Assembly (NCBI GenBank): GCA_965198235.1 | Contig: OZ240248.1 | Span: forward strand, 1,376,001-1,440,000 | Length of the DNA stretch: 64,000 bases | DNA from: Candidatus Poribacteria bacterium | GTDB taxonomy: Bacteria; Poribacteria; WGA-4E; WGA-3G | Direction: 5' to 3' | In this document: positions 1,909 to 46,412 of the stretch, piece by piece | Layout of the letters: each line of letters opens with the position of its first letter | Numbering within the stretch: position 1 is the stretch's first letter | Position numbers and translations under genes: made by a program | Notes under the pieces: model-generated | Seen by the model: the letters and a program-made list of their open reading frames with translations, nothing else | Told to the model about the DNA's origin: nothing | Databases searched by the model: none

Positions 1909-1935
1909 ATTTAAGAATCTTGTACAGTGATGATC

Positions 1936-1989
1936 GGAAACCTGCGCGAAACGAAGTGGAGCGCAGCCCAGGAGCCCATAGTTAAAAAA
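1936..1989 (+). repeat. Family B hairpin repeat abutting ATG
   Basis: GAAAC-CTGCGC-GAAACGAAGTGGA-GCGCAG-CCCAGGAGCCCATAGTTAAAAAA; about 10 related copies in the window. Confidence 0.9.
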
Positions 1990-17129: not shown

Positions 17130-17324
17130 AATTCCCGCAGGTGGTTTTCTGAGAGCAAGGAGCCATTCTGATGAAACCGACCATTTCTCTTACAAATACC
17201 GGGGGATGTCAACAGTGATGGCGTGACTTCCGATCTTCAACCCCAGCGGGGTGATATGTCTATAGGGGAACAATGCCCGGGAGCCCATAGTTAAAAAATC
17301 GCAAAAGTTTGGAGAGTATATATC

Positions 17325-18379: not shown

Positions 18380-18595
18380 ATGGATGCAAAATTGAAAAAA
18401 ATTCAGATTACGCCAATGAAATTCGATAAACAGGGCGAAATACAAAAAGAAGAGTTCGCTACGCTCACCATTGAAGTACCGATGGATAGCACAGGACAAC
18501 GTGCCGCAATTATAGAGTTGTGTGAACTCCTCGATCAAGAATGGGTTGTTGTGGAGGTTGAGGGCAAAACGGTCGTGGCTGTCAACACCGCTTAA
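18380..18595 (+). CDS. Small hypothetical protein (71 aa)
   Basis: AAGGA SD before ATG; protein-like composition. Confidence 0.65.
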   Translation: MDAKLKKIQITPMKFDKQGEIQKEEFATLTIEVPMDSTGQRAAIIELCELLDQEWVVVEVEGKTVVAVNTA

Positions 18596-18643
18596 GGTGT
18601 GAGTAAAGGGGATAGAGTCTTCGAGGTACAAATTCCCATTTCC

Positions 18644-18856
18644 GTTGAACTTCACCGAAAACCATCGTGGAGTGTTTTTCTAACTATGGAAATCTGGTCA
18701 CTGCTCCATTATATTCCTTGCCCCTTCCCAGTAACGGGTGGGGACCCCGGTTTTTGGTTAGTGCCAACACATCCCAGGGGTTCAAAGGTTTTTGACTTCA
18801 CCAGAAACCGTTGTGAAACGAAGTGGAACAACGCCCAGGAGCCCATAGTTAAAAAA
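18644..18856. repeat. Composite of family B arms (reverse 18675-18712, forward 18792-18856) around a family F REP (18718-18751)
   Basis: Arms match other B copies; F matches mutL 9752-9785 at 32/34 nt. Confidence 0.85.
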
Positions 18857-19984
18857 ATGATTAAAAAATGGCTTTTTACACCCGGTCCCACGCCGATTCC
18901 GCCTGAAGCGTTGTTGGCGATGGCACAACCGATTGATTACCACCGCAGCGATGCCACTGCAACGCTCATTAAAGACGTTCTTGAAAAACTCAAACACGTT
19001 TTCCAAACCGAGAATGATGTCCTCTTTCTAACATCATCTGGAACCGGTGCTATGGAAGGCGCAGTCGCCAATCTTTTATCTCGTGGCGACAAAGTCATTG
19101 TCATCCGAAGCGGTAAATTCGGGGAGCGGTGGAGCGACATCTGCACCGCTTACAGCATTGAAGTGATCCCGATTGACGTGACATGGGGGGATTCTGTTGA
19201 ACCACAGACAGTTGAGGCACTCTTGACGGAACACCCCGATGTGAAAGCCGTCTTTGCAACGCTCTGTGAGACATCGACGGGGGCTTTGCACGATATTGAG
19301 ACGTTGGCAGGTCTAACGCGAGTTCGTCCGACACTCTTGCTTGTTGATGCTGTCAGCGCGCTCGCTGCCGATGATTTACAGATGGATAATTGGGGGGTGG
19401 ACGTTGTTGTTTCCTGCTCCCAAAAAGGCTTAATGACACCGCCCGGTCTGGCGTTCGCTGCGCTCAATGAACGCGCATGGAACGCTGTTGCGTGTTCTGA
19501 CCTCCCAAAATACTATCTCGACTTCCGAAAAGCACATCAAAGCGGCTTAGAGGGTTCTGTACCCTACACACCGGCGGTAACGCTGCTGACGGCACTTCAA
19601 TGTGCCTTGAATCGCATCTGTACAGAAGGTATCCGCAATACCATCGCCCGTCACAGTCGCTTGGCAGTCGCGACCCGGAGTGCGGTTAAAGCACTGGGTC
19701 TCTCCCTCTTTGCAGCGTCTCCAGCGAATACTTTGACCGCTATCCACCTGCCAGCGGAAATTGATGGACAGGCGTTTATCAGTCTGATGCGCGACACATA
19801 CGGTATCACCTATGCCGGCGGTCAGAGTCAGTTAAGCGGAAAAATCGTCCGGATCGCACATCTCGGCTGGATGAATGAAAACGATGCTATCGTCGCCATT
19901 TCTGCCTTGGAGCGAGGTCTCTGCTCCATCGGATATGACGTTCCACTGGGTGCTGGCGTTACCGCTGCACAGGAAGTTTTTTAG
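18857..19984 (+). CDS. Class V aminotransferase (serine-pyruvate/alanine-glyoxylate family)
   Basis: LFTPGPT, SSGTGAME, ETSTG, VDAVS, SQKGLMTPPG. Confidence 0.93.
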   Translation: MIKKWLFTPGPTPIPPEALLAMAQPIDYHRSDATATLIKDVLEKLKHVFQTENDVLFLTSSGTGAMEGAVANLLSRGDKVIVIRSGKFGERWSDICTAYSIEVIPIDVTWGDSVEPQTVEALLTEHPDVKAVFATLCETSTGALHDIETLAGLTRVRPTLLLVDAVSALAADDLQMDNWGVDVVVSCSQKGLMTPPGLAFAALNERAWNAVACSDLPKYYLDFRKAHQSGLEGSVPYTPAVTLLTALQCALNRICTEGIRNTIARHSRLAVATRSAVKALGLSLFAASPANTLTAIHLPAEIDGQAFISLMRDTYGITYAGGQSQLSGKIVRIAHLGWMNENDAIVAISALERGLCSIGYDVPLGAGVTAAQEVF

Positions 19985-20167
19985 GAGTCGTCAGCGGTCA
20001 GTCGTCGGTTTTAACTATCAACTCGCCTCTGTTATAAATATTAAAGCACGAGTTGATGCTTAAAGAAAAGGAACCTTGTGGCAGGTGAAAGCGATAGCAA
20101 CAGGCACAACGGTCTACCGAAGGTCTCCGATAGCCATTCCTACCGACTGTCATTGACCCAGAGGCAG

Positions 20168-20232
20168 TTGAACTTCACCAAAAACCGCTGCGTAATGGAA
20201 TGGAGCAGCGACCAGATTTAATAGTTTAAAAA
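20168..20232 (+). repeat. Family B repeat abutting ATG
   Basis: CGCTGC-GTAATGGAATGGA-GCAGCG-ACCAGATTTAATAGTTTAAAA. Confidence 0.9.
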
Positions 20233-21507
20233 ATGGCTGAAACCACACTTTTTGACGCTTCTTACGAACACCGAAAAAAGCCGCTATTGACCCTAACACT
20301 GGAACGTTTGCGTCCCATCTATAGCAAGTCCGAATTGAACGCTTTACGTATTGACAGTATGAGTCGGGAGGGGTTAGCACAACGCTCTGGACGCGGATTC
20401 GTCAATCGGGATATTCTTGAAACCGTGCTTGGCAATTTACTGGAATGTGTCGCACCAGGATCCCATAATGCGCCGCAGCTGCATAACCAAAGGCGTGAAC
20501 TCTCGGAAGCGATTGAAGAGGTAGCAGACCAGTTGTATGCGATGGTAGCGCAATCGTTTTTGGCTGTTACAGATGAAACACGTCTCGGTGCTGCGCTTGA
20601 AACCGCTTTTTCGCTCCTCTGGGAACTACCACGGCTCAAAAGTCGAGCCCTCTGGAATCGCTTCGCCTCTCTTAAAGATCCGGCTGTCTGGGATGCCTAC
20701 CTTCTCCACACCGGTATCTCTCGCGAAAAACTCGCCGCGCTTGATTTCCGTTCCCAAATTGACACCGCAATTCAGGAGCGAACCTTTGAACCGTACCAAG
20801 ACTTCCTTGGTAGTTTGAATCTCGCCTCTGTTTTGGATTATCAACTCCAATTGGTAGGGAGTACGTATCCCGGTTGGCGTGTACTCTTTTACCACGATGT
20901 CGCACACGCTTTAACACGAAGCGATGACCTTGAGGAAAGTCCAAACATTCACAGAATCCCAGTTCCATTATTGCCGCGCGCCATCTCGGAACTCGGTGGA
21001 CGCTACTATCAAGCCGATTTACATCCAGAAACGCAGATAGGCGATGCCAATTTCTTGGAACACCCGCATCGCGGTGTAACCACCGGACAGACGGGCATCA
21101 TCGGTTCCGGGTGCGTTATTTATCCAAGCACGCTCGGTGGATTGAGTGTCAAGGTAAAACAACGGCATCCCGTCATCGGCGATTTTGTTGAAATCGGCAC
21201 GGACACCAGCCTGCTCGGACCTGTTCAGGTTTCTGACCATTCTACTGTCGGCACGAACACTGAAATTTATGGATTTGTTGAAATTGAACAACGGTGTCGC
21301 ATCGGTTCGTCAGTCGTCATCGGGACGATCCGCGGCGCGTCAGAGCATCCCGGAAAAATCTATATCGGAGATGAGGTGCGCATCGGAGATGGCACTATCA
21401 TTGAAAATACATCGGAAATGGACCTGATTATACCCAACCGCTCGCAGATCCCGGCGCGAAGCCATATCGCAAATGATGGGTTTGGATTCCCTCGATATGT
21501 TATGTAA
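20233..21507 (+). CDS. Left-handed beta-helix acyltransferase (serine O-acetyltransferase-like) with long N-terminal domain
   Basis: DLHPETQIG...EHPHRGV...TLGG...RHPVIGD and hexapeptide repeats. Confidence 0.75.
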   Translation: MAETTLFDASYEHRKKPLLTLTLERLRPIYSKSELNALRIDSMSREGLAQRSGRGFVNRDILETVLGNLLECVAPGSHNAPQLHNQRRELSEAIEEVADQLYAMVAQSFLAVTDETRLGAALETAFSLLWELPRLKSRALWNRFASLKDPAVWDAYLLHTGISREKLAALDFRSQIDTAIQERTFEPYQDFLGSLNLASVLDYQLQLVGSTYPGWRVLFYHDVAHALTRSDDLEESPNIHRIPVPLLPRAISELGGRYYQADLHPETQIGDANFLEHPHRGVTTGQTGIIGSGCVIYPSTLGGLSVKVKQRHPVIGDFVEIGTDTSLLGPVQVSDHSTVGTNTEIYGFVEIEQRCRIGSSVVIGTIRGASEHPGKIYIGDEVRIGDGTIIENTSEMDLIIPNRSQIPARSHIANDGFGFPRYVM

Positions 21508-23139: not shown

Positions 23140-23305
23140 TAAAACTGAGGCGATTAGAACTAATGCTTATATGCGTGATGGAATGGACATCCGATAGGTT
23201 TTATGGTATTCTATGCTAAGAAAAATACGACAACTCATCACGGACTTAAAAAAAACTGGTTTCATCGACAATACAACTACGAGACTAACCTAATAGGAGG
23301 AACAG

Positions 23306-27188: not shown

Positions 27189-27267
27189 AATTGGTAAAAA
27201 ACCGACTTTAAGGTATTAAGGGCTTTTTGACGAATGCCCAGAAAGAATCAGAACTCACCGGAAACCG

Positions 27268-29340
27268 ATGCGTAATGAAATGGAGCATCGACCAGATTTA
27301 ATAATTAAAAATATTGGGGTTGATACGGGTGGCACCTTCACCGACATTGTGATGCGTATTGATGGCGACCTGTTCACACACAAAGTCCTGTCTACGCCGC
27401 AGAATCCTGCCCTCGCTGTCCTACAAGGTGTGAGTGAAATCTTGCGTATGCACGACACCGATACCGAACGCTTGGACATTGTCCACGGATCGACGGTAGC
27501 AACGAACGCACTTCTTGAGCGTAGAGGTGCCCGTATCGCCCTCGTCACCACGAAAGATTTTGAGGACATTTTAGAGATAGGCAGACAGGCACGTCCGAAC
27601 CTCTATGATTTCTTCGTAGAGCGTCCCGCTCCGCTTGTCCCTGCGGATAGACGCTTCGGTATATCAGAACGGACACTGCACACAGGTGAAATCCAAACTG
27701 AGATTGAACCAAGCGATTTAGAGGCACTCGCGTCCGAACTCGCTACATTGGAACTTGATGCCATCGCGGTCTGTTTCCTCTTCGCCTACGTCAACCCACA
27801 GAACGAACAGATTGTTGCCGAGCACCTCGCCCGGCTTGATATACCCATCTCATGTTCACACGAAGTCTTACCGGAATATCGAGAGTATGCGCGTTTCAGC
27901 ACTACTGTCGCAAACGCGTATATCCGCCCTACTTTGGAACGGCATCTCTCTACGCTGACCGATTCTGAGCAGTTTCCAGCGTCTTTCCGTTTGATGCTCT
28001 CCAACGGAGGTTGTATCTCTGCAAGGAACTTTGAGTCTGCGGGTATCCGCACTGTCCTTTCCGGTCCTGCTGGTGGTGTTATGGGTGCGTATCAAGTCGC
28101 CAAGACCGCTGGCTACGACCAAATCATCACATTTGATATGGGTGGCACTTCAACGGATGTGAGCCTCTGCAATAGTGGTATCTCCCTCACGACCGAGAGC
28201 ACAATTAGTGGACTCCCGATCAAAGTTCCGTTGATTGATATTCATACCGTCGGTGCCGGGGGTGGTTCTATTGCGACTGTGGATGCAGGTGGCGCACTCC
28301 GCGTCGGACCCGAAAGTGCAGGGGCAGATCCAGGTCCCATCTGCTACGGAAACAATGGAGAAGATGTCACGGTAACCGACGCGAACCTTTACTTGGGACG
28401 TATCGCAGCGACCCAGTTTTTAGGGGGGGCGATGTCCCTTGACGCCGATAAGACCCGCACACACATTGAAGAATTTGCGAAGCGTCTTGGCGTTCCACCG
28501 TTGCAAGCAGCAGATGGCATTCTTAAGGTTGCCAACGCGGCGATGGAACGCGCCATCAAGGTCATCTCTGTGGAGCGCGGATTTGATACACGCGATTTCA
28601 CGCTCGTCTCCTTCGGTGGGGCTGGCGGTTTGCATGCCGCATTTATGGCAGAGAATCTCGGCATCAAAACAGTGCTGATCCCACCAAACGGCGGTTTGCT
28701 CTCTGCTTACGGGATGCTCTTCGCAGATGTCGTTAAAGATTATTCGCAGACCGTCTTGTGGCAATTTGAAAAGAGCAATGAAGATAACGCAAGTCTTGTT
28801 GAAGCGTTGAACGCCGGTTTTGACACACTCTTGACCCGTGCGGAGAATGAGATGAAAAGTGAGGGGTTCGTCCCGCATCAGCTTAAAATTGACCGTTCGC
28901 TTGATATGCGGTATGAGGGACAGTCTTATGAGTTGAATATTCCGTGTTTTACCGAGGAACATGCTCCTTCAACCGAGATAAAGGCTCTTGCTGAAAGATT
29001 TCACGCTGCGCATGGACTGCGGTTTGGTTATGCCCGGACCGATGCCCCAGTGGAGGTGGTGAACCTTCGACTTACAGCCACTGGAAAGACCGACAAACCT
29101 CCCATCCAATCAGTCCCATACACCGATACTGATGCCTCTGAAGCGTTTACTGTCCAAAACCGTGTTATCTTTGAAGGTGAAGCACACCCAACCGATTTCT
29201 ACCGCCGTGAGGCGTTGCGTCCCGGCAATCGAATCGCAGGTCCCGCGATTGTGACAGAATTTAGCGCGACGGCTGTAATACCCCCAAATTTCTCCGCCGT
29301 TGTTGATGCCTACCAGAATCTTATTTTGAAAAAAAAATAG
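27268..29340 (+). CDS. Hydantoinase A / 5-oxoprolinase subunit
   Basis: IGVDTGGTFTD, HGSTVATNALLE, SGPAGG, DMGGTSTD, GAGGGS. Confidence 0.95.
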   Translation: MRNEMEHRPDLIIKNIGVDTGGTFTDIVMRIDGDLFTHKVLSTPQNPALAVLQGVSEILRMHDTDTERLDIVHGSTVATNALLERRGARIALVTTKDFEDILEIGRQARPNLYDFFVERPAPLVPADRRFGISERTLHTGEIQTEIEPSDLEALASELATLELDAIAVCFLFAYVNPQNEQIVAEHLARLDIPISCSHEVLPEYREYARFSTTVANAYIRPTLERHLSTLTDSEQFPASFRLMLSNGGCISARNFESAGIRTVLSGPAGGVMGAYQVAKTAGYDQIITFDMGGTSTDVSLCNSGISLTTESTISGLPIKVPLIDIHTVGAGGGSIATVDAGGALRVGPESAGADPGPICYGNNGEDVTVTDANLYLGRIAATQFLGGAMSLDADKTRTHIEEFAKRLGVPPLQAADGILKVANAAMERAIKVISVERGFDTRDFTLVSFGGAGGLHAAFMAENLGIKTVLIPPNGGLLSAYGMLFADVVKDYSQTVLWQFEKSNEDNASLVEALNAGFDTLLTRAENEMKSEGFVPHQLKIDRSLDMRYEGQSYELNIPCFTEEHAPSTEIKALAERFHAAHGLRFGYARTDAPVEVVNLRLTATGKTDKPPIQSVPYTDTDASEAFTVQNRVIFEGEAHPTDFYRREALRPGNRIAGPAIVTEFSATAVIPPNFSAVVDAYQNLILKKK

Positions 29341-42388: not shown

Positions 42389-42441
42389 TGTGTAACTAAC
42401 TCCTTGCGCGGCTATAAACCGCACTTCTGAGTGTAGCAAGG

Positions 42442-42585
42442 TTTTTAATTATTAGAACCTGGGCATCGCTCCATTCCATTACGCCGTGGTTTCTGGCTAA
42501 GTCAACCACCACGCGGGTATGAAAGGGGATTGGAATTCACCAAGAACCCTCGTGAAACGAAGCCCAGAGGCCAATAAATTAAAAA
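42442..42585. repeat. Back-to-back pair of family B arms (144 bp foldback)
   Basis: TTTTTAATTATT..CTGGGC ... GCCCAG..AATAAATTAAAAA. Confidence 0.85.
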
Positions 42586-42590
42586 CCCTA

Positions 42591-45500
42591 CTACCCTTTG
42601 TTCAGGACTTCGTCCAGATTGAGAATCAGGTTTGCAATCATCGTCCATGCAGCGACTTCGACTGCATCTAAAGTCTCATCAGGTGTCGATTCACCGACAG
42701 CGATTAACGCTTTGGCTGCTTCCGGGTCCGCCTCTAACTCCTGATAGTGGGCTTGGAACGTCTTCAACAACAGTGCTTCCTCCTTCGGCTTTGGAAGGCG
42801 AGCGGTTGCCATCTCAAAAATATAGGCGATACGTGCTTCCGGTGTTTCGCCTCCGTCCTTAATGGTGTGCTCCGCTAAAGCACGAGCCGCTTCAAAGAAC
42901 TGTGGATCGTTCATCAGCATTAATGCCTGCATCGGTGTGTTGGTACGTTCACGGCGGATTGTGCAAGCTTCACGTGATGGAGCGTCCAAAATGTTCATCT
43001 GCGGCGGGGGTGCGGTGCGCTTCCAGAATGTATAGAGACTCCGGCGGTATATCTTATCAGCACCGGTATCTTTAACGAACGTGTCGGTATTAGAGCCGGT
43101 AAACCCGACGGCTTTCCAGAGTCCATCCGGTTGCGGTGGTTTGACACTTGGACCGCCAATTTTAGTATGCAGCAAGCCGCTGAGGGCGAGCGCGTTATCT
43201 CGCACGATTTCGGCATCAAGTCGATACCTGGGACCGCGGGAGAGAAGTGCGTTATCTGCATCGCGTTCCAATTTTTTAAGAGTGACCTGTGCGCTCTGAC
43301 GATATGTTGCTGAGGTAAGCATCAATTTGAGCACGGCTTGAACATCCCATCCCGATGCAACAAATTCGGTCGCAAGCCAATCAAGAAGTTCTGGATGCAC
43401 CGGTGGGGTGCCTTGTGTCCCGAAATCTTCTGACGTTTTCACAATCCCCGTCCCGAAGACGTTTTGCCAGAATCGATTAATCGTGACACGGGCAGTAAGT
43501 GGATGTTCCGGTAAAAGCAGCCACTTCGCAAAGCCGAGGCGATTCGATGCTGCCTCTTCTGGTATGGGAGGTAGCACTGCCGGAGTTTGAGGATAAACCT
43601 GTTCCTCGCGATGTTCGTATTCACCGCGTGCTAAGACGTAGGCACCTCTTGGTTCCTCTCGCTCTTGCATGACAAGTGTAGTCGTGAGTGATGCGTCCAG
43701 TGTGTTCCACTTTCCTTGGACCTCCGATAAGTCTGCAAAAAGCGTTCGCAAATCCGCGAAGGCGCGCTTGGTATTTTCATTGACTGTCTTATCTAACGTG
43801 ATGTTCTTCCGATAGTAATCTCGAATCTGTGCCGTCTGTGCGGTTTCGCGTTCACCACGAGGCATCCCCGCGATATCAACAATATTTGCTGGCACCATCG
43901 GTGGTGCACTTTCGATATGGAAGTAGAAACCAGAGGGACCCGAGTAATTGACGACTTTCAGGAGCAGCGTATTGTTACCGGGCTTGAGATCGACCTGCAT
44001 CTGCTCTTGGTCGACAGCGGCATCTCGCTGAACGTTTTTGGCGAGGAGTTCCGTGCCATTCATCCAAACCTTCAGCGCATCGTTGCTTCCGATGTACAGG
44101 AAGGCTTTCTGTTGGGTAACAGAGGCGATGTTTCGGAAAAGATAAGTGGCACTGTTTTCGCCAACGATGTCGTTATGCACCTGTTCGTCAACCCAATGTG
44201 TCTGCTTCTCCCATTTAATGGTTTTACCGTTCACCTCAAATGTATCGCCTATGTTAACATCTTTCGTTTCAGGTTCGTAGACCTTGTAGAAAGCGAGGTT
44301 ACCGTGCGCAGCAGTGAAGGGACCGGCGGCGTGCCAGTCGCCTGAAGTGATTTTGGAACCGATGGGATAAATCGTTGTGACATCTGTAAGGGCGAGTCGG
44401 AATCGTCCAAGCTGCTTCTGTCGCAGGTCATATTCGTGCTTGAGGCGAATTTTCAATCTGCCGCCTTCCATCCCAAACGGGGCGGCGACAAGAAAGATGG
44501 CTTGCCGGTTTTCGCCCCTTCTGTCGAGTGCCCATCCGGTTTCCGGCTTGGCGTCAATCGCATTTGCAACGACACCGTCGAGATTGTTTTCCCCAAGTGC
44601 TTGCTCGTGGTCTGCCCATGCATGCACGACTTGAATACGTGTCCATGGATCGTCGGTATCGGTGCTTTCGGTCTCATTTGCTGCACTCTCTTCGCTCGTT
44701 GATGCACTGTCGCTGTCGGTTTGCGTTTCAGCGTCAGCCTCAGCGACAGGTGTATTTTCCGCCTGTGCTTCAGGGTCAGCATCAACGGTGCTTCCGGTCT
44801 CCGCTTGCGTTTCAGCATTAGCCTCGGTATCGGTGCTTTCCGTTTCAGATGGTGCCTCACTATTTTCTGCGGGTGGAGCCATGAAGAGCGCAAAATCGGT
44901 CAAGACGACATTGCTGTTATCACTTCTGCCGACTCCTCCTTTTGGTAACGATTCGTGTGTGAGACCTTCTAAACGGACGGCACTCCATTTGCCGGGTGGC
45001 ACTTCCGCGATGACCTCGTAGATTTCCTGCTCAGGGTTGGTGCCGCTGGCTAAGATAGAGTTGTCCTCTAAGACTTCAAGTGTCGCACTGCCTTTTGAAT
45101 AGAGCGAGGTCGGTTTAAGCGTCGTCCAGTGCGGTATCCTATTTTCCCAAGCGACTTGCGTCGCATCTATTTCGGGGATAGGAGATTTCGTCTGAGCGTC
45201 CAGTTCGGCAATCTGTTCATCAAACGCGGCGAGTTCAGCTTCCTGCTCCGGGGTCGGCAACTTTACAACAGGGGGAGAATCCTTGCGATTGCCGTCCATA
45301 GCTTTTTCAGTGATATTGTTGAAATAGGCGTAGAGTTGATAGAATTCCTTCTGCGTGATCGGATCGTATTTATGATCGTGGCACTGCGCGCATCCGACAG
45401 TTAATCCCATCCAGACAGTAGAGGTCGTGTCGGCTCTGTCGATCGCATACTGGACGTAGTATTCCTCATCGATTGAACCGCCTTCACTTGTTGTGACATG

Positions 45501-46412
45501 GCATCGGTTAAAACCTGTGGCGATCTTTTGTTCAACGGTCGGTTCCGGCAAGAGATCCCCCGCTAACTGCTCAGTCGTGAACTGGTCAAACGGCATATTT
45601 TTATTGAATGCCTTGATAACCCAGTCGCGATAGGGCCACATTTCACGGTAGTTATCTAAGTGAAGCCCGTGGGTGTCGCCGTACCGTGCGACATCTAACC
45701 AGAAGCGTGCGAGATGTTCGCCGTATTCCGGCTTTGCCATGAAGGCATCAATAACTTTCTCGTAAGCGTCGGGTGAATCGTCTGTAAGGAATTGGTGAAT
45801 TTCTTCACGCGTCGGTGGTAAACCAGTGAGGTCAAAACTTAAACGTCGGATGAGAGTCCGCTTATCCGCTTCGCTTGCGGGTTGTAAGTCTTCTTTCTCA
45901 AGGCGTGAAAGTATGAACGTATCAATGGGGTTTCGTACCCAATCTCCGTTCTTGATATCTGGTGGCGTTGGACGGACTGGTGTGGTGAACGCCCAGTGCT
46001 CTTCCCATTTCGCGCCTTCGCGGATCCACTGCGTAATCGCTTCAATTTCTTCCGGTGTCAGCGTCTTGTTGAAATCCGCTGGCGGCATGCGATAATTGTC
46101 ATCGTTGGAGATAACGCGAAGATGGAGCTCGCTCTCTTCCGGTTTACCGGGAACGATTACCGGGTATCCGCTCGGTTCAGAGAACGCTCCTGCTTTCGTA
46201 TCAATCCGTAGGTTCGCTTGCCGACTCTTCGCATCTGGTCCGTGGCAAGCATAGCAGTTATTTGAAAGAATCGGGCGGATGTCAAGGTTGTAATTTATGT
46301 TGACTTGTGCCGTTTCGTGATGTTCTGCGGATGCCGAGGGTGGTACTAACATGGCGAGGCAGAAACACACTAACATAGCCATTAGTGGAATCGTAGTGTT
46401 AGCGATCTTCAC
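42591..46412 (-). CDS. Planctomycete cytochrome c / DUF1549 / DUF1553 (PSD1) protein
   Basis: CYACHGPD, HWAF, CAQCHDHKYDP, HPELLDWLA, RRSLY, NLDE. Confidence 0.95.
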   Translation of the reverse strand: MKIANTTIPLMAMLVCFCLAMLVPPSASAEHHETAQVNINYNLDIRPILSNNCYACHGPDAKSRQANLRIDTKAGAFSEPSGYPVIVPGKPEESELHLRVISNDDNYRMPPADFNKTLTPEEIEAITQWIREGAKWEEHWAFTTPVRPTPPDIKNGDWVRNPIDTFILSRLEKEDLQPASEADKRTLIRRLSFDLTGLPPTREEIHQFLTDDSPDAYEKVIDAFMAKPEYGEHLARFWLDVARYGDTHGLHLDNYREMWPYRDWVIKAFNKNMPFDQFTTEQLAGDLLPEPTVEQKIATGFNRCHVTTSEGGSIDEEYYVQYAIDRADTTSTVWMGLTVGCAQCHDHKYDPITQKEFYQLYAYFNNITEKAMDGNRKDSPPVVKLPTPEQEAELAAFDEQIAELDAQTKSPIPEIDATQVAWENRIPHWTTLKPTSLYSKGSATLEVLEDNSILASGTNPEQEIYEVIAEVPPGKWSAVRLEGLTHESLPKGGVGRSDNSNVVLTDFALFMAPPAENSEAPSETESTDTEANAETQAETGSTVDADPEAQAENTPVAEADAETQTDSDSASTSEESAANETESTDTDDPWTRIQVVHAWADHEQALGENNLDGVVANAIDAKPETGWALDRRGENRQAIFLVAAPFGMEGGRLKIRLKHEYDLRQKQLGRFRLALTDVTTIYPIGSKITSGDWHAAGPFTAAHGNLAFYKVYEPETKDVNIGDTFEVNGKTIKWEKQTHWVDEQVHNDIVGENSATYLFRNIASVTQQKAFLYIGSNDALKVWMNGTELLAKNVQRDAAVDQEQMQVDLKPGNNTLLLKVVNYSGPSGFYFHIESAPPMVPANIVDIAGMPRGERETAQTAQIRDYYRKNITLDKTVNENTKRAFADLRTLFADLSEVQGKWNTLDASLTTTLVMQEREEPRGAYVLARGEYEHREEQVYPQTPAVLPPIPEEAASNRLGFAKWLLLPEHPLTARVTINRFWQNVFGTGIVKTSEDFGTQGTPPVHPELLDWLATEFVASGWDVQAVLKLMLTSATYRQSAQVTLKKLERDADNALLSRGPRYRLDAEIVRDNALALSGLLHTKIGGPSVKPPQPDGLWKAVGFTGSNTDTFVKDTGADKIYRRSLYTFWKRTAPPPQMNILDAPSREACTIRRERTNTPMQALMLMNDPQFFEAARALAEHTIKDGGETPEARIAYIFEMATARLPKPKEEALLLKTFQAHYQELEADPEAAKALIAVGESTPDETLDAVEVAAWTMIANLILNLDEVLNKG

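Follow-up and report, generated by a model that had tools for sequence, protein, structure and literature searches.

A non-coding repeat family appears to have colonised the gene spacers of one genus of Candidatus Poribacteria, with a small hairpin as the structured core of each arm, and we hold this view with moderate confidence. The hairpin forms one arm of a small element repeated several hundred times in the spacers of this sponge-symbiont genome, most likely a mobile DNA repeat rather than a dedicated RNA switch. Whether these elements constitute a new family of REP/MITE-like mobile intergenic repeats, with the hairpin read as single-stranded DNA by a putative enzyme, we judge to be an even call. 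Throughout, the window is the whole stretch of DNA that was analysed, 64,000 nucleotides in length.

A covarying hairpin around a purine-rich loop

The first-pass annotation named four perfectly paired stems of differing sequence in the window, and all four were recovered when the sequence was checked: CTGCGC/GCGCAG at 1942-1966, CGTTGT/ACAACG at 18809-18833, CGCTGC/GCAGCG at 20186-20210 and CGATGC/GCATCG at 27266-27290. Each encloses GWAAYGRARTGGA and is flanked, as had been described, by AAAC on the 5' side and CCAG-like letters on the 3' side. A fifth copy lies on the minus strand (42460-42484) with a broken stem, while a sixth loop match, at 23175, is probably due to chance, as it has one mismatch and no stem. 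Within the window taken alone the loop pattern is weakly above chance, with 6 matches against 1.58 expected and 6 reached in 1 of 100 shuffles.

The whole genome holds 415 loop matches, 301 in the AAAC context and 114 inside a second element class; the four letters 5' of the stem are most often AAAC (193 of all 415), with ACAC at 23 and GAAC at 21. All six pairs are Watson-Crick in 213 of the 301 AAAC-context hairpins, compared to a mean of 22.6 and a maximum of 35 after shuffling of the 3' arm, and 27 distinct perfect stems occur among them. A strict form of the pattern matched 164 times in the genome and its backwards-read form 0 times. The earlier claim of compensatory covariation was borne out by an Infernal model, which aligned 129 copies in 484 kb with 96.8% of cells paired and changes on both sides in seven of eight pairs; the covariation score of 0.72, against 0.23, was reached by 0 of 500 shuffles. 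Together with the 213 perfect stems, this gives good support to the proposal that the structure is maintained. Wobble pairs were not in excess (19 G.T pairs versus 22 A.C mismatches). Outside the Poribacteria, 41 of 43 genome matches to the same pattern had three pairs or fewer, and none of 41 matches in viral contigs had five or more. Single-sequence folding energies were modest (-4 to -10 kcal/mol, z -0.6 to -2.5), so that support for the fold is comparative rather than thermodynamic. On these comparative grounds the hairpin is confirmed as real, with its pairing kept by compensating changes.

The loop had been described as a 13-nt purine-rich loop. Its conservation stands, but it is not unstructured, as the loop itself holds pairs. 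After the stem come a 3x3 purine internal loop with mismatches in the order G.A, N.G and A.G, then two further pairs and a GNA triloop. Positions 4 and 10 pair as A-T, and positions 5 and 9 form a covarying Y-R pair (C-G in 169 copies, T-A in 94, other in 2). In single-stranded DNA, great stability is characteristic both of sheared G.A pairs and of C-GNA-G mini-hairpins.

Arms, composites and their place among genes

The hairpin (25 nt, with a 6-bp stem of free sequence) sits within a 63-nt arm consisting of ACCRRAAAC, the hairpin and a 23-nt tail with the conserved end TTAAAAA, past which conservation falls off sharply. The arms and fragments in the window are as follows.

1927..1989, plus strand: intact arm, ATCGGAAAC; hairpin 1942-1966, CTGCGC / GAAACGAAGTGGA / GCGCAG; 76.7 bits
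1967-1989, plus strand: tail of this arm, ending TTAAAAAA; ATG of an enolase-superfamily gene at 1990
17267..17298, plus strand: fragment consisting of a tail alone, ACAATG CCCGGGAGCCCATAGTTAAAAAA; immediately 5' of it, a palindrome of a different type, CCCCAGCGGGG..TATGTCTATAG
18644..18675, plus strand: truncated older arm, ACTTCACCGAAAAC CATCGT GGAGTG; loop interrupted by the material 3' of it
18676..18719, minus strand: partial reverse-oriented arm with tail TTTTTCTAACTATGGAAATCTGGT, 3' stem and degenerate loop; nhmmer E 4e-4
18720..18752, no strand assigned: small inserted repeat (mini-insert), cccttcccagtaacgggtggggacc...
18794..18856, plus strand: intact arm, ACTTCACCAGAAAC; hairpin 18809-18833, CGTTGT / GAAACGAAGTGGA / ACAACG; 83.2 bits
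18834-18856, plus strand: tail of this arm, CCCAGGAGCCCATAGTTAAAAAA; ATG of a class-V aminotransferase gene at 18857
20171..20232, plus strand: intact arm; hairpin 20186-20210, CGCTGC / GTAATGGAATGGA / GCAGCG; tail ends TTTAAAAA; ATG of a hexapeptide-transferase gene directly 3', at 20233
27251..27312, plus strand: intact arm; hairpin 27266-27290, CGATGC / GTAATGAAATGGA / GCATCG; tail ends TTAAAAATA; TTG start of a hydantoinase A gene at 27313, with the Pfam profile aligned from residue 1
42441..42503, minus strand: left member of a tail-outward pair that lies between two genes of the minus strand; loop intact, stem broken (CACGGC/GCGATG)
42533..42585, plus strand: right arm of this pair; hairpin truncated, CCTCGT GAAACGAAG, then the tail, which stops 5 nt short of the stop codon of an ORF on the minus strand, 42591-46412

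The palindrome beside the tail-only fragment resembles those flanking RAYT-like genes. The interval 18644-18859, originally presented as one element, is instead a nested mosaic of a truncated older arm, a partial reverse arm, a mini-insert and an intact arm. In the orthologous spacer of one relative (L016), an ACGATG arm and a tail matching the truncated 18644..18675 arm are retained. The mini-insert replaces the other stem half of the partial arm at 18676..18719; the same unit interrupts the hairpin stem in an orthologous arm of a relative, and RNA-library contigs from other loci join at it (loose ends at 18719-18752). As a nested insertion into an older hairpin, the interval was counted as DNA-level activity.

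Across the genome, arms occur singly or as tail-outward pairs about 60 nt apart, giving composites of about 160 bp that read TTTTTAA...TTAAAAA. Arm pairs within 300 nt were divergent in 67 cases and convergent in none, and at 300-6000 nt tails pointed inward around genes 41 times, with 12 cases of the reverse order. Arms of one pair resemble each other no more than random arms do: their tails share 58% identity versus 55% for random arms, and a common stem was seen in 0 of 34 pairs with 3.1 expected. The family contains no near-identical twins, the median nearest-neighbour identity over 108 nt being 69% with none reaching 95%, and thus no recent burst is shown. That most hairpins are nevertheless intact could reflect constraint acting in place.

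The second class is an element of about 100 nt that carries the same loop, in 114 copies, on a shorter 4-bp stem. Its consensus fold (RNAalifold) comprises the hairpin and a CC-GCAA-GG mini-hairpin and nothing more. At least 83 hairpins are interrupted by a mini-insert. A strain-level insertion difference was also observed: C1 has a 41-nt mini-insert inside a hairpin loop that is absent from contig C2, whose sequence is a variant of C1:775767-815774 with 99.3-100% identity. This insert recurs at one loop position in 83 hairpins; their stems are of at least 20 kinds, and five or more pairs are retained in 71 of the 83. Other mini-inserts break into stems. A separate 230-nt difference between these contigs, at C1:792054, was rejected as a clean transposition, as it spans the ends of two genes and a second-class element.

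Few arms lie inside gene cores (9 of 253 of the type under study, 2 of 112 of the second class). The 299 full-length arms outside gene cores divide into 164 that face gene starts and 135 that face the 3' end of a neighbouring gene, and single arms face 132 starts and 91 ends. The loop is intact in 134 of the 164 start-facing and 113 of the 135 end-facing arms, and all six stem pairs are formed in 104 and 96, respectively. Tails always point to a gene boundary, the tail-outward arrangement bringing a tail against a start codon on one side or a stop codon on the other. In 63 of 253 arms the hairpin is followed, at a distance of 21-24 nt, by the beginning of a long ATG-initiated ORF, and the TAA of an opposing long ORF falls inside the tail, 15-16 nt from the hairpin, in 45 of 249. 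Four of the five arms in the window abut start codons backed by Pfam alignments, and the genes downstream are unrelated to one another. Of 390 clear starts, 59% have a Shine-Dalgarno-like word at -18 to -5; none stands at the usual -12 to -8 in front of tail-type starts. These placements partly show that the arms supply an A-rich upstream region without a Shine-Dalgarno sequence at the usual distance to many genes and a stop codon to others, both of which follow from arms filling whole spacers. Replichores could not be delimited, the assembly showing too weak a GC skew.

Distribution, turnover and competing readings

Among the genomes sampled, the element is present in 55 of 56 congeneric relatives, in 2 of 38 from the sister genus and in 0 of 56 from elsewhere in the phylum, and the genome-collection matches fall in Candidatus Poribacteria. 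Strict matches number 164 in this genome versus 0 to 55 in relatives, several of which are single-contig assemblies, and copy numbers differ 30-fold. At eight spacers of a syntenic 20-kb region, five relatives whose genes there are 88-93% identical mostly have other repeat families or short spacers where arms stand here. Across 30 relatives, the spacer upstream of the aminotransferase gene either is empty or contains this arm, an element of the second class or hairpins of other families, and TTAAAAA-ATG is kept at orthologous starts beneath different upstream repeats. Arms are dispersed chromosome-wide among housekeeping genes in conserved order. The orthologous spacers and the range of 0-164 copies within the genus amount to presence/absence differences of the kind looked for in MITEs.

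Two functions had been offered for the hairpin, a single-stranded DNA structure for a mobilising enzyme and a 5'-UTR RNA motif. The former fits better, being consistent with turnover and nesting, and the latter accounts for part of the data only. The mobile-DNA reading is favoured by the restriction to one genus, the 30-fold copy differences, turnover at orthologous sites, nesting and the strain-level loop insertion difference, while the equal integrity of end-facing arms speaks against a pure 5'-UTR motif. Under the favoured reading, the arm would multiply and turn over as DNA, and the hairpin would extrude in single-stranded DNA, where a putative enzyme may recognise the invariant purine loop and require of the stem its pairing alone. 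Drift of the stem through compensating changes around a fixed loop would follow from a loop-reading enzyme indifferent to stem sequence.

No target-site duplication was seen at 16 arm pairs read by eye, no clean empty site was present among the relatives compared, and a search of Y1 genes and arm-bounded elements found no mobilising enzyme for the arms. None of the six Y1 genes is adjoined by the hairpin; the nearest copies are 1.4 to 2.7 kb from two of them, and the other four have none within 3 kb. Three stand-alone, RAYT-like Y1 genes are flanked by palindromes of other types, and Y1 gene counts do not track arm counts across 31 genomes. A RAYT as the mobiliser is accordingly not supported. 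Nor was an autonomous parent element seen, as no repeated inner gene stood out among 12 tail-outward pairs 300-6000 nt apart, judged by the number and length of inner ORFs, both of which vary from pair to pair.

An RNA leader module is a rather unlikely explanation, although it draws on several of the same observations. It holds that the arm is transcribed with the downstream gene and that mobility merely distributes it; the hairpin, 22-23 nt 5' of the start, would be a protein-binding or stabilising structure and the A-rich tail a Shine-Dalgarno-independent ribosome landing site. The spacing of hairpin and ATG fits an RNA or promoter role, as do the Pfam-supported starts abutted in the window an RNA role, and of the 110 second-class copies that lie outside gene cores (112 copies examined) 83 run in the direction of the next gene. 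At tail-type starts the tail would have to do the job of the missing Shine-Dalgarno word, and TTAAAAA-ATG persists at orthologous starts under different repeats. RNA-library contigs also span the arm at 20171-20232 and continue into its gene, but this support is weak because DNA carry-over and read-through are possible, the four metatranscriptome runs being available as contigs only, with repeat depth that sums many loci and no transcript ends. Against a leader, mRNA at the 135 equally conserved end-facing arms would hold the pyrimidine complement of the loop, wobble pairs are not in excess, the downstream genes are unrelated, orthologous genes in other species do not keep their arms, and copies range from 0 to 164 within one genus. 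CsrA is the obvious binder of GGA loops; a CsrA/Rsm operator was considered as the loop contains GGA, yet none of 25 candidates in this 96.3% complete genome is CsrA. The fixed distance to the ATG would also suit an outward promoter for leaderless or near-leaderless mRNAs, a highly improbable reading in which a -10-like hexamer of the tail consensus (CATAGT, CATAAT, TAAATT) lies 5-7 nt before the ATG. Transcription would then start at or near the start codon and leave the hairpin as upstream DNA. Correia elements of Neisseria carry outward promoters (PMC10969869). When the arms at 18794-18856 and 20171-20232 were put through a simple sigma-70 scan, neither gave a promoter, and by eye no -35 match stands at the proper distance. 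A double-stranded promoter leaves the stem covariation unexplained, RNA-library contigs continue upstream through the arm, and end-facing arms would yield antisense RNA.

The end-facing arms could instead be exit terminators, with the order stop codon, hairpin and GTTTYYGGT when read from the gene side and pairs insulating neighbouring genes. RAAAC 5' of the hairpin is a T-rich run 3' of it on the other strand, and the opposing TAA inside the tail and the 41 versus 12 tails-inward arrangements agree with such a role. Its prospects are slimmer still than those of the promoter: a terminator scan of 18550-20300 found 0 terminator-like sites, by which an intrinsic terminator was rejected at the arms tested, the T run is short and interrupted, and the loop on that strand is pyrimidine-rich with a weak fold (-4.8 kcal/mol, z 0.09). 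Termination would also leave the invariant purine loop and the start-facing arms unexplained. Quasi-palindrome correction is a DNA repair process templated within the palindrome, and it or gene conversion between copies could generate covariation as a by-product of an unselected fold. Stems differ under the same neighbouring centre sequence or mini-insert, as shuffling between copies would produce, and G.T and A.C intermediates are equally rare. We regard this as very doubtful, as it does not explain an invariant 13-nt loop with a covarying inner pair, nor the same loop on the 4-bp stem of the second class. An extension of the mobile-repeat reading, which we offer tentatively and think unlikely, is that the loop, with its three stacked G.A-type mismatches, two pairs and GNA triloop, docks an undescribed single-strand-specific DNA enzyme of this genus that spreads the arms and steers the 41-nt mini-elements to one exact loop position. 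If so, a new system of transposition or recombination, guided by hairpins and with no recognisable transposase gene adjoining its substrates, would use these hairpins as landing pads, and the enzyme would incidentally alter the surroundings of start and stop codons in hundreds of genes.

Relation to known repeats and significance

Rfam 15 gave no match at the gathering score in the window. The Rfam comparison proposed with the hairpin thus identified no family, and at E<=10 the interval 18600-18900 returned one 10.9-bit chance match elsewhere; four second-class loci had no match at E<=1. A literature search found no paper on Poribacteria intergenic repeats. A motif named "Poribacteria-1" was reportedly described by Weinberg and colleagues in 2017, and the name was not found in the main text of that paper, to which the search was confined. 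Either element class might equal that motif, although Rfam 15 gave no hit.

REP elements are short extragenic hairpins with a GTAG or CGTC tag, as described by Di Nocera et al. 2013 (PMC3733652). The family resembles REPs and REPINs in its hundreds of short extragenic hairpins, its frequent inverted doublets, whose members stand some tens of bases apart, its restriction to a lineage and its role as a hot spot for other insertions. Like a REP, which measures 20-40 bp, it is a short, high-copy extragenic palindrome, here of 25 nt in 301 + 114 copies. Arms of the type under study lack the GTAG or CGTC tag, and only the second class starts with (C)GTAG. REP families have a common stem sequence, whereas here conservation lies in the loop and the stem may vary freely; arms also stand at gene starts as often as after genes, and the RAYT-like genes are flanked by other palindromes, unlike in REP-RAYT systems. 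The REPIN concept is said to originate with Bertels and Rainey in 2011; unlike in a REPIN, the two members of a doublet are dissimilar here.

Bacterial MITEs include Correia/NEMIS of Neisseria, ERIC, RUP, BOX and SPRITE (PMC10969869). The composites resemble Correia elements and other MITEs as non-coding intergenic sequences of about 100-200 bp with inverted ends, located directly upstream of genes with a possible effect on expression, and inserting into one another. In contrast to these, no target duplication or parent insertion sequence was found, and each end has a small hairpin with a conserved structured loop. The arms of a composite follow one consensus and are not copies of each other, unlike ordinary terminal inverted repeats, and no sigma-70-like promoter was detected in the two arms scanned.

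Neisseria REP2 repeats end directly before start codons and form the upstream region of many unrelated genes. The arms do likewise, but they have a covarying hairpin, form tail-outward pairs and also cap gene ends. Integron attC sites probably act in a folded, single-stranded form, and the arms share with them a structure kept more than its sequence, a position between a stop codon and the next start, and end words that by eye resemble RYYYAAC / GTTRRRY. Unlike attC sites, arms are scattered chromosome-wide with no cassette array. An attC identity was rejected, as the genome contains no integron integrase (best match 46.9 bits versus a cut-off of 265).

Longest-ORF gene calls run into the arms, beginning for example at 18599 instead of 18857 or at 27268 instead of 27313, and the annotated start codons beside arms should therefore be corrected. 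If our reading holds, the conserved unit in one uncultured genus of sponge symbionts would be a small, precisely structured hairpin and not a common sequence, and a repeat system would have replaced most of the spacer sequence before and behind hundreds of genes. This would bear on how transcripts end in these bacteria, and on how translation starts where no Shine-Dalgarno sequence stands at the usual distance. With several hundred compensated stem variants around one loop, the family would be an unusually clean starting point in a search for the protein that recognises the loop.

Arms of the repeat in the window

The spacer at 18644-18859 follows a small ORF (end 18595) and precedes a gene for a class-V aminotransferase (Pfam PF00266; ATG 18857). 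The first-pass annotation had assigned its hairpin to this whole interval; an intact hairpin is present, but by sequence reading the interval is a mosaic of four repeat pieces, among them a single intact arm. In aligned copies, the arm is a 63-nt repeat made up of GAMTTMACCRRAAAC, a hairpin with a 6-bp stem around a 13-nt loop, and a 23-nt tail, with conservation ending abruptly right after TTAAAAA. The four hairpins named previously, at 1942, 18809, 20186 and 27266, were all found in the sequence, each perfectly paired and each with a different stem.

Repeat pieces and arms in the window
18649-18675: truncated arm, ACTTCACCGAAAAC CATCGT GGAGTG
18676-18719: partial arm, reverse orientation
about 18720-18752: small inserted repeat
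18794-18856: intact arm; hairpin CGTTGT / GAAACGAAGTGGA / ACAACG at 18809-18833
hairpin at 1942: intact arm, ends directly before the start of an enolase-superfamily gene (1990)
hairpin at 20186: intact arm, ends directly before the start of a hexapeptide transferase gene (20233)
hairpin at 27266: intact arm, ends directly before a hydantoinase A gene (TTG 27313)
42441-42585: pair; fifth arm with a broken stem, plus truncated partner

The tail CCCAGGAGCCCATAGTTAAAAAA of the arm at 18794-18856 directly adjoins the aminotransferase ATG. The orthologous spacer of one relative (L016) still has the older hairpin, CATCGT...ACGATG, whose loop bears a different insert; the window copy therefore inserted later, into the loop of a pre-existing hairpin. 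The genes following the arms at 1942, 20186 and 27266 are mutually unrelated. Longest-ORF calls run upstream through two of the arms (GTG 18599, covering 18599-18856, and ATG 27268, covering 27268-27312); the true starts are likely ATG 18857 and TTG 27313, immediately 3' of the tails, and the alignment of hydantoinase A from TTG 27313 to its Pfam N-terminal profile begins at residue 1.

Maintenance and extent of the fold

The window alone shows only mild enrichment of the loop pattern, with 6 matches against 1.58 expected; the genome-wide case that the hairpin exceeds chance is overwhelming. Across the 5.17 Mb of the genome (2 contigs), GNAAYGNARTGGA has 415 matches, of which 301 lie in the context of the original finding. 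Six Watson-Crick pairs form in 213 of these 301, compared with a mean of 22.6 and a maximum of 35 when the 3' arms were shuffled 1000 times, and the perfect stems comprise 27 different sequences. The reversed pattern has no match in this genome. A covariance model built from 14 copies and run on 484 kb of this genome matched 129 copies; in that alignment 96.8% of cells are paired, both sides have changed in 7 of 8 pairs, and shifting the partner by one column reduces pairing to 15-23%. The covariation score is 0.72 compared with 0.23 in shuffles, none of 500 reaching the observed value. As this alignment was fitted to the structure of the model it is biased in favor of pairing, a bias from which the pattern counts (415, 301 and 213) are free. 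The compensatory covariation claimed in the first-pass annotation is thus stronger than stated.

In genomes not labelled Poribacteria, 41 of 43 pattern matches have at most 3 pairs, and the remaining two, both from one MAG, carry the same tail; none of 41 matches in viral contigs has 5 or more pairs. In Collinsella and Coriobacteriaceae (L070-L149), each Collinsella genome has a single conserved locus that matches the pattern, GGTCCG GAAATGCAATGGA GCGGAC, with tRNA-like letters after it; because its stem is unpaired, this locus is unrelated to the Poribacteria element.

The 13-nt loop is conserved as described, but it is not a plain loop. Its positions 5 and 9 covary (C-G in 169, T-A in 94 and other in 2 of 265 copies) and an A-T pair joins positions 4 and 10 (A-U in 119/123 cells of the model alignment), so that the fold consists of the 6-bp stem, a symmetric 3x3 internal loop (G.A / N.G / A.G), two further pairs and a GNA triloop. 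Both sheared G.A pairs and C-GNA-G mini-hairpins are known for their stability, in DNA as well as in RNA. The first stem position is C-G in 249/265 copies, while the other five each use 2-4 pair types; wobble pairs show no preference (G.T 19, A.C 22), and nearest-neighbour energies of the hairpin are modest.

A profile search found 364 arms on contig C1, the main contig, including 67 divergent pairs with tails outward and no convergent pairs within 300 nt. Hairpins of a pair are most commonly spaced ~60 nt apart, giving composites of ~160 bp. Over 300-6000 nt the reverse, tails-inward order prevails (41 vs 12), and genes are thus bracketed by arms with tails toward them. The two arms of one pair are not copies of each other: none of 34 strict pairs shares a stem (3.1 expected; zero sharing arises in 3.1% of 2000 random pairings), and tail identity is 58% inside pairs vs 55% between random arms. 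The pair centres (~60 nt) fall into several families, and a given centre can go with different stems.

Gene boundaries and DNA-level events

The tail adjoins a gene boundary irrespective of gene direction. A long ATG-initiated ORF begins 21-24 nt past the hairpin, just after the A run, in 63/253 arms. On mechanical ORFs, the tail's TTA complements the TAA stop codon of an opposite-strand long ORF, 15-16 nt from the hairpin, in 45/249 arms, and a complement stop (TTA, CTA or TCA) lies at 7-8 nt in 12 more. On a crude gene map, single arms point toward the start side of the next gene in 132 cases and toward a gene end in 91, and paired arms by their arrangement face both. End-facing arms are as intact as start-facing ones, both in the loop (113/135 vs 134/164) and in 6/6 stems (96/135 vs 104/164). 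Among 390 unambiguous starts genome-wide, a Shine-Dalgarno-like word is found between -18 and -5 in 230, with G enriched at -12 to -9, and 63 carry a TTAAA-type run instead. The GGAG-like word of the tail lies about 15 nt upstream of the ATG, beyond the G-enriched positions, so genes preceded by an arm seem to lack a canonical Shine-Dalgarno sequence at their starts.

Contig C2 (43.9 kb) is a variant of C1:775767-815774, 99.3-100% identical. Two large differences separate it from C1, one being a 41-nt insert (TAGGTTTCCTTAAATGGCATAATTT...; C1:789087-789127) within the loop of a CTGCTC hairpin, between GTAATGAAAT and TGGA, which is replaced by 2 letters in C2 (C2:13490-13491). Of the 17 copies of at least 80 letters among the 129 model matches, 15 carry the same insert at this loop position, as do at least 83 hairpins genome-wide with at least 20 different stems (6/6 pairs in 47, 5/6 in 24). 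Only these 83, with half-loops on both flanks, were counted, since about 110 chance matches to the 13-mer core with 2 mismatches would be expected by our estimate. Stems are also interrupted, by other small units. The pattern reflects either repeated targeting of the loop by mini-elements or stem exchange among copies, and both are processes at the level of DNA, centred on the hairpin. C2 also has a 230-nt stretch (C2:16419-16648) that is missing from C1 (C1:792054). One ORF ends and the following one begins within it, and it includes a second-class element carrying two nested mini-inserts; a deletion that fused two genes, or a difference in assembly, may account for it.

This second class is a ~100-nt element that has the arm's loop on a 4-bp stem and accounts for 114 loop matches (...GCG TAGCYY loop RRGCGG RTCTACGGAAAGG...ACCGAACCGCAAGGAAAATTAAAAA), beginning (C)GTAG and ending ...ACCGAACCGCAAGGAAAATTAAAAA, often right before an ATG. 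Only the inner four stem pairs form, and the sole further support from RNAalifold is a CC-GCAA-GG mini-hairpin past the hairpin. Two of 112 copies examined lie inside gene cores, of the remaining 110, 83 run in the direction of the next gene, and an ATG follows at 60-64 nt in 29/112. Three tandem copies at 109-nt spacing lie at C1:1204177-1204500.

Distribution, candidate enzymes and interpretation

Of 56 relatives sampled from the same genus, 55 have the strict pattern; it also occurs in 2 of 38 sister-genus genomes (one true pair and one unpaired chance match) and in none of 56 genomes from the rest of the phylum. Among the matches listed from the genome collection, the records are titled Candidatus Poribacteria. 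The genuine tail-outward pair (G067, C1:2873771-2873888), in a genome where the element is otherwise absent, may be a transfer or a relic. Strict-pattern copies number 164 here compared with 0 to 55 elsewhere (5 to 49 in single-contig assemblies). Copies within this genome are not recent twins: median nearest-neighbour identity is 69% over 108 nt, much of it unrelated flank, and 90% over hairpin and tail, and only 4/249 are identical over these 48 nt.

Gene order is conserved among relatives and spacers are not. In 30 relatives, the spacer upstream of the aminotransferase contains this arm, a second-class element, some other repeat or nothing, types that are named here without counts as anchor projection placed about half of the loci. 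Five relatives, 88-93% identical in their genes, mostly have other repeats in the 8 spacers examined in a 20-kb region of synteny. At orthologous genes the arm is replaced by a further hairpin family, whose variable stems enclose a GACAACGG-type loop and whose tail is of the same type, ending TTAAAAA-ATG (e.g. L006, L020, L021; G006/G024). Other Poribacteria genomes contain the second class, a AACAACGG-loop family and nested mini-elements. Additional families begin with TTTAATAGTTA... and finish in ...ATAACTRTTAAAAA or ...CCATAAAT, and some of them contain short units in tandem (e.g. L019, L025, L031, L033; G004, G014, G018), and spacers between conserved genes in relatives are nearly all made up of such repeats.

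Comparison with Rfam returned no matching family, and searches of the genome found neither CsrA, as a CsrA operator would require, nor the integron integrase expected for attC sites. Six Y1 transposase genes are present. Three form IS200/IS605-type pairs with a long ORF that is TnpB-like by size, and three are stand-alone, RAYT-like genes (L038:1280-2028, L039:1244-2400 and L040:1354-2080; C1 near 3853757, 606918 and 1898775). Each of the latter has distinct palindromes of its own on its flanks, CACCCCGTAGGGGTG..TATGTCTATAG in form, as inverted copies and then TATGTCTATAG, with four tandem copies at 121-nt spacing in L039; a similar palindrome lies in the window at 17236-17266, just before a tail fragment. 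Y1 gene numbers across 31 genomes do not track arm counts (for example, 12 and 15 Y1 genes alongside 5 and 6 arms), and a role of Y1 as the mobiliser is not supported. Promoter and terminator scans found none, and RNA-library contigs running through an arm into a gene (20085-20608) and over two genes (19542-20623) show only that the arm can occur in such libraries. The first-pass annotation had offered either a single-stranded DNA recognition hairpin or a 5'-UTR motif; the DNA reading is the better supported, and a pure 5'-UTR motif is disfavored given the equal integrity of arms facing gene ends.

No published description of the element was found in the literature searched, which included the main text of Weinberg et al. 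2017. New here are the extended fold, the rule that tails meet boundaries at either end of a gene, the dissimilarity of paired arms, the equal conservation of arms in both gene contexts, the genus-level distribution and the strain-level loop insertion. The best-supported interpretation is that the arms are a lineage-restricted, high-turnover, REP/MITE-like repeat whose hairpin is kept so that a putative enzyme can recognise it when folded in single-stranded form, most likely as DNA. An RNA-level role of arms in front of genes may coexist with this DNA role, and the altered start and stop contexts of genes would be consequences of the repeat.
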